Shown piece after piece: positions 37,718 to 39,308 of a stretch of DNA of 64,000 nt. How positions within the stretch are numbered: position 1 is the first letter of the stretch; each line of letters opens with the position of its first letter. The notes beneath the pieces were generated by a model. The model was not told the origin of the DNA. It saw only the letters and a program-made list of their open reading frames with translations, and made no database searches. The DNA is taken from positions 27,819 to 91,818 of the forward strand of contig CAWCDN010000010.1 of the NCBI GenBank assembly GCA_963794355.1. Reading direction: 5' to 3'. The position numbers and the translations under genes were made by a program. The DNA comes from an uncultured Actinomycetota bacterium (lineage in GTDB: Bacteria; Actinomycetota; Actinomycetes; Propionibacteriales; Nocardioidaceae).

Positions 37718-37758
37718 GCTCGTCGGCAATGTGAGGACGGCCTGAGCCCGCAGGCATG
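37718..37758 (+). repeat. Inter-module site, copy B1, fused to an IS30 right-end remnant
   Basis: GCTCGTCGGCAATGTGAG then GACGGCCTGAGCCCGCAGGCATG, identical to 39229-39251. Confidence 0.8.
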
Positions 37759-37785
37759 CCCGGCAACTTGGTGGGCACCCACGAC

Positions 37786-37827
37786 CTCACATCGGCATAT
37801 GAGTACGACCGGACAGCGGCATGAGCG
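37786..37827 (+). repeat. Inter-module site, copy B2 (complete)
   Basis: CTCACATCGGCATATGAG-TACGAC-CGGACAGCGGCATGAGCG. Confidence 0.8.
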
Positions 37828-37858
37828 CCCACACGACGCAGCGGAACCTTCGCCGGTG

Positions 37859-38002
37859 ATGTGTGACGTTGACGAACCCAAGCCGGAATACGCTGACCGC
37901 GTGATATTCGCAGCCGCCGCGCTAGTCCTCGTGGGGATCGTCGGGGGAATCGTCTACGGCGTGCAGGAACTTCTCGAGAGGTTGCGGGACCGTCGCCGCT
38001 GA
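37859..38002 (+). CDS. 47-aa single-pass membrane protein
   Basis: Hydrophobic stretch VIFAAAALVLVGIVGGIVYGV followed by basic tail; bounded by repeat sites on both sides. Confidence 0.55.
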   Translation: MCDVDEPKPEYADRVIFAAAALVLVGIVGGIVYGVQELLERLRDRRR

Positions 38003-38024
38003 CGCCACGCCGCCCGCTCATCGG

Positions 38025-39245
38025 GGCGGTCTCAATGGGTCAGCGCAACACTTCCTTGATTCGAGGAGGTCGCGATGGCCCGTCAACATCGGCAACGGTT
38101 GTCCCCTGCAGACATCGATGAGATCTGGAGGCGGATGCGAGCCGGCCATTCGATGAAGCCGGCAGCTCGAGCGCTTGGTCTTCCGACCAGCACGGTGCGC
38201 TCGTACCTGGTGCGGTGGGGCGGGGTCATGCCCGAGCCGCGACACCGTGGATCGCGCCGGTTGAGTCTGGCCGAGCGCGAGGAAATCTCGCGAGGCCTGG
38301 CTGCGGGTCGGTCGCTGCGCATGATCGCGGCCGAGCTGGGTCGCGCGCCGTCGACGATCAGCCGTGAGGTCGCCGGCAATGGCGGCCGACGGGGCTACCG
38401 GGCGACCGTGGCCGACCAGGGAGCGTGGGCCAGAGCGACCAGGCCGAAGACGTGCAAGCTGACCACCAACCCGGTGCTGGCTGGCGTCGTGGCTGCCAAG
38501 CTGCAACGACGGTGGTCGCCCCAGCAGATCGCCGGCTGGTTGAAGCGGACCTATCCCGACGACCCAGGGATGCACGTGTCGCACGAGAGCATCTACCGCA
38601 CCCTGTTCGTGCAGTCGCGCGGTGCGCTGCGCAAAGAGCTGACCGCCTACCTGAGGACCGGACGGGTGCTGCGACGCCCCCAGGGGGTCAGGATCCCCGA
38701 TGGTCGCGGGAGTCGTCCGGGGATCGTGAACATCAGCGAGCGGCCCGCTGAAGCGAGAGACCGGGCGGTGCCCGGGCATTGGGAAGGTGATCTCGTCTTC
38801 GGCAAAGGCATGTCCCCGGTCGCGACCCTGGTGGAGCGATCCACCCGCTACCTGCTGCTGGTCGGTCTGCCTGACGGCAACCACAAAGCCGACGCCGTCG
38901 CCGACGCCCTCGCCGCAGCAGTCGCACACCTGCCCGAGCATCTGGCGAAGTCGCTGACCTGGGACCAGGGCCACGAGATGGCCGAACACGCACGGTTCAC
39001 CCAGGAGACCGGGATCGAGGTCTACTTCTGTGACCCCCAAGTCACCCTGGCAGCGCGGCAGCAACGAGAACACCAACGGACTCCTGCGCCAATACCTGCC
39101 CCGGCGACTCGACTTCCGGACCCTGACCCAAGCCGACTTCGACGACATCGCCGACAAGCTCAACGGACGCCCTCGACAGACCCTCGGCTTCAAGACACCA
39201 TCACAGGTACTGGCCGAGGTGTTGCGTTGACGGCCTGAGCCCGCA
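38025..39245 (+). mobile_element. IS30-family insertion sequence, copy 1 (1221 bp)
   Basis: 27-bp imperfect IRs GGCGGTCTCAATGGGTCAGCGCAACAC / GTGTTGCGTTGACGGCCTGAGCCCGCA; GG dinucleotide on both flanks (38023-24, 39246-47). Confidence 0.92.
38075..39230 (+). pseudogene. IS30 transposase with one +1 frameshift (C5 run, 39034-39038)
   Basis: LSLAEREEI, PSTISRE, WSPQQIA, GHWEGDL, TWDQG; C-terminus SPWQRGSNENTNGLLRQY..NGRPR is in another frame. Confidence 0.88.
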
Positions 39246-39308
39246 GGCATGTGAGTGCGTTGCGATTGCGTCACGTCCGGTGCCGACCGTTGGTCTTTGC
39301 CCCAGACT

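Follow-up and report, generated by a model that had tools for sequence, protein, structure and literature searches.

This report deals with a window of 64,000 nt of DNA from an uncultured Actinomycetota bacterium of the family Nocardioidaceae (GenBank assembly GCA_963794355.1, contig CAWCDN010000010.1, positions 27,819 to 91,818), and with a 23-bp direct repeat in a modular gene island of this window, where it lies next to insertion sequences (IS) of the IS30 family. The upstream copy of the repeat can be identified with high confidence as a scar left by the right end of an IS30-family element. Taken alone, this is an ordinary IS30 decay scar; the interest is raised by its context, conserved junction sites that split an actinobacterial island into exchangeable cassettes. 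On balance, we favor the reading that the IS30 elements are site-specific parasites and rearrangers of a recombinase-type cassette array and not the builders of this array.

The 23-bp sequence GACGGCCTGAGCCCGCAGGCATG has two exact matches on the plus strand of the window and no further match with up to three mismatches; none is expected from 100 dinucleotide shuffles. The two copies and the elements directly attached to them are the following:

37736..37758, plus strand: upstream 23-mer, consisting of a solo IS30-family right-end remnant (37736-37752, 17 nt), GG (37753-37754) and CATG of a right half-site
39229..39251, plus strand: downstream 23-mer, consisting of the right terminus of the insertion sequence IS_A (39229-39245) and a 6-bp flank (39246-39251; the 2-bp duplication GG and CATG)
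38025..39245, plus strand: IS_A, an IS30-family insertion sequence of 1221 bp, its ends set where the likeness among 30 copies stops
38023..38024, no strand assigned: left-hand GG of the 2-bp target duplication of IS_A, the right-hand GG occupying 39246-39247
37725..37735, plus strand: right half-site GGCAATGTGAG, equal to the consensus GGCATGTGAG with one extra A, which abuts the scar; sub-site a of a former double site
37701..37716, plus strand: possible second, more degraded right-end remnant (CGACCTCCCGCA followed by GGCA), for which the evidence is weak and which could be due to chance

A genome scan with the IS_A transposase recovered approximately 30 close IS copies together with their flanks, and comparison of the ends and flanks of these 30 related copies places the IS terminus at ...CCTGAGCCCGCA, a terminal sequence that is kept at the right end of about 27 of them. 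The first-pass annotation of this DNA had located the repeat at exactly these two positions and had split it into the last 17 bp of the right inverted repeat (IR) and 6 bp of target flank, and both statements are borne out, by the exact-match search and by the related copies, respectively: all 17 nt of the upstream stub equal the tip of IS_A and are followed by GG and CATG. It had further stated that no other IS sequence is present at 37736 and that the remnant is fused to another half-site. Indeed, there is no IS interior upstream of 37736, and GGCAATGTGAG stands in the place of the expected GTGTTGCGTT. The consensus half-site is also found, as GGCATGTGAG(GACG), directly after both IS copies of the island. 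The sequence CCCGCAGGCA occurs five times (0.66 expected), three of which are in the scar cluster or at IS_A. All 23 positions agree between the upstream and downstream copies, and both have the lineage-specific variant GACGGCC, the corresponding sequence of most IS copies being GACCGCC. Since the right flank of IS copies in this clade most often reads GGCATG, a 6-nt flank common to both 23-mers is expected even for independent insertions. The downstream 23-mer is the live junction of IS_A, which, with its GG duplication, occupies the center of the palindromic site preceding the lipoprotein cassette.

IS_A has the hallmarks of the IS30 family, namely a DDE transposase with helix-turn-helix (HTH) and rve domains, a length of ~1.0-1.25 kb with IRs of 20-30 bp and a target duplication of 2-3 bp. 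Its terminal IRs are imperfect (GGCGGTCTCAATGGGTCAGCGCAACAC and TGCGGGCTCAGGCCGTCAACGCAACAC, matching at 20 of 27 positions), and the transposase open reading frame (ORF; 38075-39238) matches the Pfam domains HTH_38 (9e-21) and rve (4.5e-12) as well as the NCBIfam model transpos_IS30 (186 bits, cutoff 80). Homologous transposases of 384 amino acids (aa) with 82-97% identity are named 'IS30 family transposase' in their sources, and the best relatives carry Nocardioides or Aeromicrobium names or stem from soil metagenome-assembled genomes, which suggests that the DNA stems from a Nocardioides-like actinobacterium in a soil metagenome assembly. The 30 copies have common termini, GG(C/T)GG(T/C)CTCAA... 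on the left and ...GTGTTGCG.TGAC(C/G)GCCTGA(G/A)CCCGCA on the right, and the flanking dinucleotides (GG or CC) match in 23 of 28 related copies. The transposase gene of IS_A contains a +1 frameshift in a run of five C residues (~39031-39038), which is present in the window and in a second assembly; related copies are intact at 384 aa. The frameshift may be a homopolymer error of long-read sequencing and not a real pseudogene. One short-read contig from another sample has one base fewer at 39035.

The second assembly (ENA ERZ25039606, contig_4844; loci L081 and L174) is independent and contains a sister haplotype of the region, which is 99.5% identical to the window over 29531-40921 and 42093-50700. 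It has the same layout and an identical solo copy of the 23-mer; in the copy attached to the IS, one base is changed (G>A at 39232). The repeat might be thought to be an artefact of long-read metagenome assembly, given that the source appears to be a metagenome assembly, that the frameshift of IS_A falls in a homopolymer and that 37640-37773 is covered by no public sequencing run (the best runs share 20-27% of words with the locus, and their short contigs leave this stretch uncovered). However, the second assembly, despite a sequence difference of 0.5% and a replacement of 1.2 kb, keeps both the solo copy and IS_A. The same solo copy and layout in two assemblies make a misassembly very unlikely, and we give this explanation hardly any credence; the local misassembly that the first-pass annotation had named as a possible refutation of its model is thus not what the data indicate.

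IS30 transposes by a copy-out-paste-in mechanism, targets hot spots and generates 2-bp duplications (PMC9333248). The flanks of the IS copies related to IS_A read ...(A)ACGCAC.CTCATCGG-IS-GGCATGAG.GTGCGTT... or the reverse complement thereof, in short form ...CATCGG-IS-GGCATG... or ...CATGCC-IS-CCGATG.... As these two forms are reverse complements of each other, they represent one long palindrome with an asymmetric CGGC center that is used in both orientations, and the insertions of this IS30 clade are found at the CGGC centers of junction sites in either orientation. Junction sites were searched for with a two-arm full-site score, which was built only from the IS flanks and compared with a shuffled null (maximum 18.5 per 64 kb). 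A half-site position weight matrix (PWM) used at a low threshold was unspecific, with 62 matches versus 56 expected, and was replaced by the two-arm score. Strong sites in the 64-kb window are restricted to the island, where they are located at 36329, 37794, 37818 and 40889 in addition to the occupied sites and reach scores of 18.0-26.2. The sequence CGGACAGCGG occurs five times (0.46 expected), four times inside the island. Junction sites are often doubled and then span ~56 nt with centers that are 20-24 nt apart; 16 non-redundant examples give the double-site consensus CCGCTCAT-CGGC-AGATCCGCGCGCGGACAG-CGGC-ATGAGCGTGCGTT. Two other origins of the sites were considered and rejected: the IR-IR junction of the IS itself or a miniature inverted-repeat transposable element, because the site arms match the IRs only at GACG(G/A)CC and TGCGTT, and dispersed repetitive extragenic palindromic elements, because the strong sites of the 64 kb are confined to the island.

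The island (36.3-42.2 kb) is an array in which RTX, small membrane-protein, lipoprotein and secreted-protein modules are separated by these conserved palindromic sites; site centers are the exact positions of two IS30 copies and of at least two scars. The description of the surrounding genes as modules separated by such sites, given in the first-pass annotation, agrees with the site scores and with the distribution of CGGACAGCGG. The order is a site, the RTX gene, the scar cluster with an empty double site (37701-37835), the small membrane-protein ORF, the site occupied by IS_A, the lipoprotein gene, a site arm with an inverted IS tip, the secreted-protein ORF on the minus strand, a double site, IS_B, a half-site and, after 260 bp, tRNA-Val. 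The individual features are as follows:

36310..36346, plus strand: junction site upstream of the RTX module, CGCGCGGACAG-CGGC-ATGTCAGGGC, full-site score 21.1
36436..37692, plus strand: gene of an RTX-repeat secreted protein of 418 aa (Pfam HemolysinCabind; signal-peptide-like N-terminus; gene call in L081/L174)
37779..37835, plus strand: unoccupied double site ACGACCTCACAT-CGGC-ATATGAGTACGACCGGACAG-CGGC-ATGAGCGCC, with centers at 37793-37796 and 37817-37820, 24 nt apart
37859..38002, plus strand: ORF of a small predicted membrane protein of 47 aa ('TM cargo') between the scar cluster and IS_A, without significant family match
39246..39308, plus strand: right half-site and conserved 5' leader of the lipoprotein cassette (GGCATGTGAGTGCGTTGCGATTGCGTCACG...); homologous leader without IS in L082, L090 and L092
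39309..40166, plus strand: lipoprotein-like cassette gene with the lipobox LSAC, of no known family
40181..40205, minus strand: second IS30 scar, consisting of the left arm and center of a site (CGCGCGGACAGCGG) and an inverted IS right-end tip (TGCGGGCTC, at 40197-40205)
40224..40811, minus strand: secreted-protein-like ORF of 195 aa with a signal-peptide-like start, without family match
40873..40914, plus strand: double junction site, score 22.6; sub-site a is empty (center 40888-40891), and the left arm and center of sub-site b (CGCGGACAGCGG) abut IS_B
40916..42136, plus strand: IS_B, a decayed IS30-family copy with several frameshifts, indels in the left IR and a diverged right tip (GACGACCTGACCACATC)
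42137..42154, plus strand: right half-site GGCATGTGAGGACGATGC flanking IS_B, half-site score 14.4
42416..42490, minus strand: tRNA-Val(cac), detected by ARAGORN and Rfam, 260 bp past the array, delimiting the variable island on the right

The two sub-sites of the empty double site at 37779-37835 have full-site scores of 26.2 and 18.0, to be read against the null maximum of 18.5, and the sequence CCGGACAGCGGCATGAGCG therein is the reconstituted IS target in locus L022. In the second scar, TGCGGGCTC is the reverse complement of GAGCCCGCA; the sister haplotype has one base fewer at 40196, and its junction reads exactly CGGACAGCGG followed by TGCGGGCTC, with the site center abutting the reverse-complemented IS tip. 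As a whole, IS_B shows ~85% identity to IS_A (77-88% within repeat blocks), and a site arm is fused to its right tip (GACGACCTGAC-CACATCGG). Where the window has the IS_B body (40922-42092), the sister haplotype has two small cassettes of 83 aa and 122 aa (L081 11389-12028). Both are preceded by GCGAGCGCGGACAGCGGCATG and match no known family, and both sub-sites of the counterpart of the double site at 40873-40914 are empty in L081 (scores 24.4 and 23.0). A weak resemblance to the 3' end of an IS30 element is seen in the final ~45 nt of the 122-aa gene. Family searches with the proteins of the small membrane-protein, lipoprotein and secreted-protein ORFs gave no match.

Cassettes and sites also occur together outside the window. 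Homologs of the lipoprotein are found in at least eight other contexts (L082/83, L084-89, L090, L092, L093, L177-179 and L180-183) with the same flanking sites and the same leader (GGCATGTGAGTGCGTT.CGAT...TCACG), and in none of these contexts does an IS30 element lie beside the cassette. In L092, a simple tyrosine recombinase of 307 aa is encoded directly upstream of a site and the lipoprotein cassette. This protein matches XerD/XerC (~1e-33 to 1e-34, below the family cutoffs) and has the catalytic residues RKHRHY; its match to the integron integrase model TIGR02249 reaches 49.7 bits (cutoff 265) and covers only residues 219-287 in the C-terminal 70. Homologs of the recombinase adjoin cassettes in L082/83, L182 (93% identity), L023 and L058, and a metagenome scan with the 307-aa protein yielded 80 loci (L094-L173) and at least 556 relatives. 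A PWM trained only on IS30 flanks gave 39 strong hits in these 80 loci (387 kb), 14 of which are located 16-58 nt after the recombinase stop codon, compared with ~0.4 estimated under uniform placement; the recombinase gene and the junction sites are thus physically linked beyond chance. By eye, a hairpin with a 13-bp stem followed by CCGGCATTGCC and GATGAGCG.GCGTT was seen in ~55 of 77 recombinase loci, and this IS is present in none of the 80. From the IS-free cassettes with sites and the linkage to the recombinase, we assign the sites to the recombinase and the cassettes. Among further observations on these loci, a conserved hairpin GCGTCTCCCGCGG...CCGCGGGAGACGC just before the site is found within the first ~60 nt after the recombinase stop in most of them, and ~15 have instead another palindrome of higher AT content (ATGCATATAGCAT...), after which a further small gene follows.

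As for the origin of the solo scar, an earlier IS of the IS_A lineage would have inserted, in the same orientation, into sub-site b of a double site downstream of the RTX cassette, and would later have been lost by an IS-length deletion of 1220 bp between GACG(A/G)CC repeats (the IS is 1221 bp long). The site arm (...GTGAG-GACGACC-GGACAGCGG) resembles the right end of the IS (...GTT-GACGGCC-TGAGCCCGCA), and this likeness may drive scar formation. The product of such a deletion would be exactly GGCAATGTGAG, GACGGCCTGAGCCCGCA and GGCATG in direct succession, and the implied original spacing of sub-sites a and b would be the canonical 24 (+1) nt. ISApl1, a member of the IS30 family, is lost from Tn6330 by deletions of approximately IS length in a shifted register, which leave end remnants beside intact flanks (PMC5821093), and an IS-length deletion by abortive transposition or illegitimate recombination of the ISApl1/Tn6330 type is a plausible source of the solo copy. 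Solo right ends are also found in L013 (22 of 23 positions identical, same 5' boundary, 16 nt kept) and L015, and the identical boundary of the independent solo in L013 points to a preferred breakpoint. The stub of 17 nt is probably inert, since the inner IR half is absent from it. In L094 (49-60, minus strand), an empty site has an extended left arm CGCCTGAGCCCTCACATGCC, the distal part of which is similar to the right end of the IS (GCCTGAGCCCGCA), a hint at an evolutionary relationship between the IS terminus and the site arms.

A different origin of the upstream 23-mer would be a local copy of the right junction of IS_A, produced by gene conversion, template switching or unequal exchange and without any separate insertion. 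Such a copy would account for the perfect identity of the two 23-mers, including the GACGGCC variant, and for their distance of only 1.5 kb, the sites are prone to tandem reiteration (29-nt units in 13-14 copies in L091-L093), and sequence conversion accompanies IR-targeting by IS30 (PMC9333248). However, the 5' boundary of the solo copy lies at a GACG microhomology with a canonical half-site, as predicted by the deletion model, and recurs in the independent solo of L013. Moreover, the G>A change in the sister haplotype affects the IS-attached copy and not the solo copy, so that conversion is not ongoing. We consider a local copy to be rather improbable.

In the reading that we favor, the cassettes and sites would belong to a site-specific recombination system that is run in trans by a Xer-like simple tyrosine recombinase, and the IS30 clade would be secondary, rearranging and eroding the array via scars, the replacement between IS_B and cassettes, and IS-cargo-IS structures. 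Several points weigh against it. No homolog of the recombinase is detectable in the 64-kb window, so that the first-pass annotation had no means of noticing it; here it would need to work in trans, much as for attC clusters that lack an integrase. The orientation of the recombinase gene is not constant, as it is on the strand of the cassettes in L092 and on the other strand in L182, and its activity at the junction sites is putative. Folded as single strands, the double sites do not outperform shuffles (z = +0.57, -1.64 and +0.80); an attC-like folded substrate is thus not supported, and folding was discarded as support for the sites. In L014 (2433-5746), two identical, directly oriented IS30 copies enclose 875 bp of low-GC DNA that contains small membrane-protein ORFs. 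The two outer flanks together form one palindrome and the two inner flanks a second one, as expected for the product of a cointegrate or a transposon circle. IS-cargo-IS units of this clade can thus form, and part of the cargo may be moved by IS30. The alignment of the IS right end with the 3' end of the 122-aa cassette has a score of 34, which is marginal with respect to the null (20.3 ± 3.8, maximum 36). A complete IS at 37753 was found in no allele, so that both the lost copy and the deletion of 1220 bp are reconstructed, and the common GGCATG flank cannot tell an independent insertion from a local duplication.

The first-pass annotation had explained the array by IS-driven cassette accretion without an integrase: cargo would have come as IS30 composite units into the palindromic site, and later loss of the IS would have left hybrid sites between the cargo genes. 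The part of this model that holds is the existence of IS-cargo-IS structures with paired palindromic flanks, as found in L014. It is further in line with the two IS copies and the scars at module junctions of the window, with the two cassettes that stand exactly at the position of the IS_B body in the sister haplotype, with the formation of transposon circles and cointegrates by IS30 (PMC9333248) and with the loss of IS copies from ISApl1 composites (PMC5821093). However, most junctions, here and in other genomes, are intact empty sites with a single CGGC center, whereas the known losses of IS30-family elements are imprecise and leave stubs, and copy-out-paste-in transposition is not known to regenerate empty sites. 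The lipoprotein cassette is accompanied by sites without IS30 in its other contexts, all 80 recombinase loci are free of this IS, and the sites are tightly linked to the tyrosine recombinase gene; accretion by the IS is, hence, an unlikely origin of the array. Neither the full IS30 at 37736 nor the IS-flanked RTX or TM cargo that the annotation had suggested looking for in related genomes was found, nor was an IS-flanked version of any cargo gene of the window found among the lipoprotein and RTX homologs. The RTX homologs are distant only (up to 39% identity), and the one examined (P0162; L175/L176) lies in ordinary chromosomal surroundings without sites. The cargo of the window does not form a composite transposon either: one complete IS and a 17-nt stub bracket the TM ORF, the flanks of IS_A and IS_B do not pair, and these two elements are only ~85% identical. 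A cassette indel of 751 bp between L084 and L088 has a site at one boundary only and is not decisive. Alternatively, the sites could be conserved patches of homology at which RecA exchanges cassettes, with the IS30 clade and the recombinase gene as mere passengers. Their length of 40-56 nt and their good conservation between genomes would suit such exchange, as would the variable orientation of the recombinase. This possibility has little probability in our view, since the cassette boundaries lie at site centers and not at random points within the homology, 14 of the 39 strong sites fall into a 45-nt window after the recombinase stop, and two arms around a short asymmetric center, often doubled, are the architecture of recombinase core sites.

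Several known systems share features with the array. IS30 of E. coli and ISApl1-Tn6330 resemble the elements described here in their HTH_38 and rve transposase, their length of ~1.2 kb, their imperfect IRs of ~27 bp and the 2-bp duplication, and furthermore in the use of long palindromic hot spots, the formation of IS-cargo-IS units (L014) and deletions of about IS length that leave stubs beside intact flanks. In contrast to these, the present clade uses a hot spot that is no chance palindrome but a junction element, conserved and repeated in a cassette array and found in many actinobacterial genomes, and the right end of the IS partly resembles the site arm GACG(G/A)CC. IS1111-attC elements and the group IIC-attC introns of integrons likewise insert into recombination sites that separate cassettes, parasitize the array and can disrupt it; however, those are DEDD (IS110/IS1111) transposases or group II introns that recognize attC, whereas here a DDE element of the IS30 family uses sites that are not attC. 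IS26 translocatable units and pseudo-compound transposons are the established case of cargo accretion next to IS copies driven by the IS without an integrase, which is the idea of the first-pass annotation, but they keep an IS at every junction, whereas most junctions here are without IS sequence.

Integrons and clusters of attC sites lacking integron integrases have in common with the array that the small, mostly unannotated cassettes are mostly co-oriented, that an imperfectly palindromic site bounds each of them, that the same cassette is found in different arrays and that the sites show linkage to a simple tyrosine recombinase; some arrays, such as that of the window, have no recombinase nearby. 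They differ in that the recombinase here is overall Xer-like and not fixed in position and orientation. The array cannot be counted among the integrons, as no IntI-type integrase with the characteristic extra domain, no RYYYAAC/GTTRRRY cores in the double sites and no folded-strand signal were found. Integrons are reported to be essentially absent from Actinobacteria. In the pdif (XerC/XerD) modules of Acinetobacter plasmids, gene modules bordered by short Xer-type sites also pile up next to one another without an adjacent dedicated integrase and with a Xer-like recombinase, whereas the array described here has a separate mobile Xer-like gene with its own site. pdif sites imitate chromosomal dif and are served by the housekeeping recombinases XerC and XerD. 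The junction sites (CTCAT-CGGC-ATGAG) are presumably unlike dif. No description of such a cassette system was found in the literature searched, which is not proof of its absence.

Tentatively, soil Actinomycetota (Nocardioides-like bacteria and relatives) may possess a system that is integron-like but unrelated to integrons, in which small secreted, lipoprotein or membrane-protein cassettes are each bordered by a ~56-nt double palindrome with asymmetric CGGC centers and would be captured and shuffled by a mobile Xer-like recombinase with its own site. A dedicated IS30 clade, evolved for exact insertion at the crossover centers, would be a parasite and an occasional mobilizer, and the 23-bp repeat would be one fossil of this conflict. 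The junction sites recur across genera and soil metagenomes and are linked to the abundant Xer-like recombinase. If true, an analogous cassette-shuffling system together with a specialized IS30 clade would change the reading of accessory-gene turnover in Actinobacteria, and it would represent a natural case of a DDE transposase that targets the recombination sites of another element.

In the region to the left of the array, the 638-aa 'RTX' ORF given in the mechanical ORF list is too long at its 5' end (window 35776-36435), the junction site lying inside this spurious part, and there is no convincing gene between 34.7 and 36.3 kb. A 236-aa ORF on the minus strand (34969-35679) was considered as a hidden recombinase and rejected, because its translation looks non-coding and matches no family. 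The window has a G+C content of ~70%, which falls to 62-63% at 37-38 and 40-41 kb. An Rfam scan of 34-44 kb detected only tRNAs. An exact look-up of the aminotransferase encoded nearby returned no record. To the right of the array, tRNA-Val(gac) at 43660-43734 is followed by a degenerate second tRNA-Val copy at 43741-43816. This second copy escaped ARAGORN, shows 88% complementarity to tRNA-Val(cac) (42416-42490) and may be a relic of integration into the tRNA cluster. Outside the window, a short repeat of ~36 nt (CCGGTGGTTGAGGAGCGAGCTCTGC.GAGC), unrelated to the junction sites, is present in three to four copies ~300 nt upstream of the lipoprotein gene in L084-L089. The tandem arrays at 9342-9753 of L093 and 6032-6380 of L091/L092 are perfect, their 13-14 copies being 100% identical, and lie beside lipoprotein cassettes; the 29-nt unit is itself a junction-site unit (GACAGCGGCATGGTCGGACGCTACGCACC), and the arrays could come from unequal exchange between sub-sites. 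In L091/L092, an IS110-family (DEDD) transposase (7037-8281) is located between the tandem site array and the tyrosine recombinase. The same island also carries a TrwC-type relaxase and a second integrase of 409 aa, a gene content which indicates that the arrays can lie on integrative or conjugative elements.

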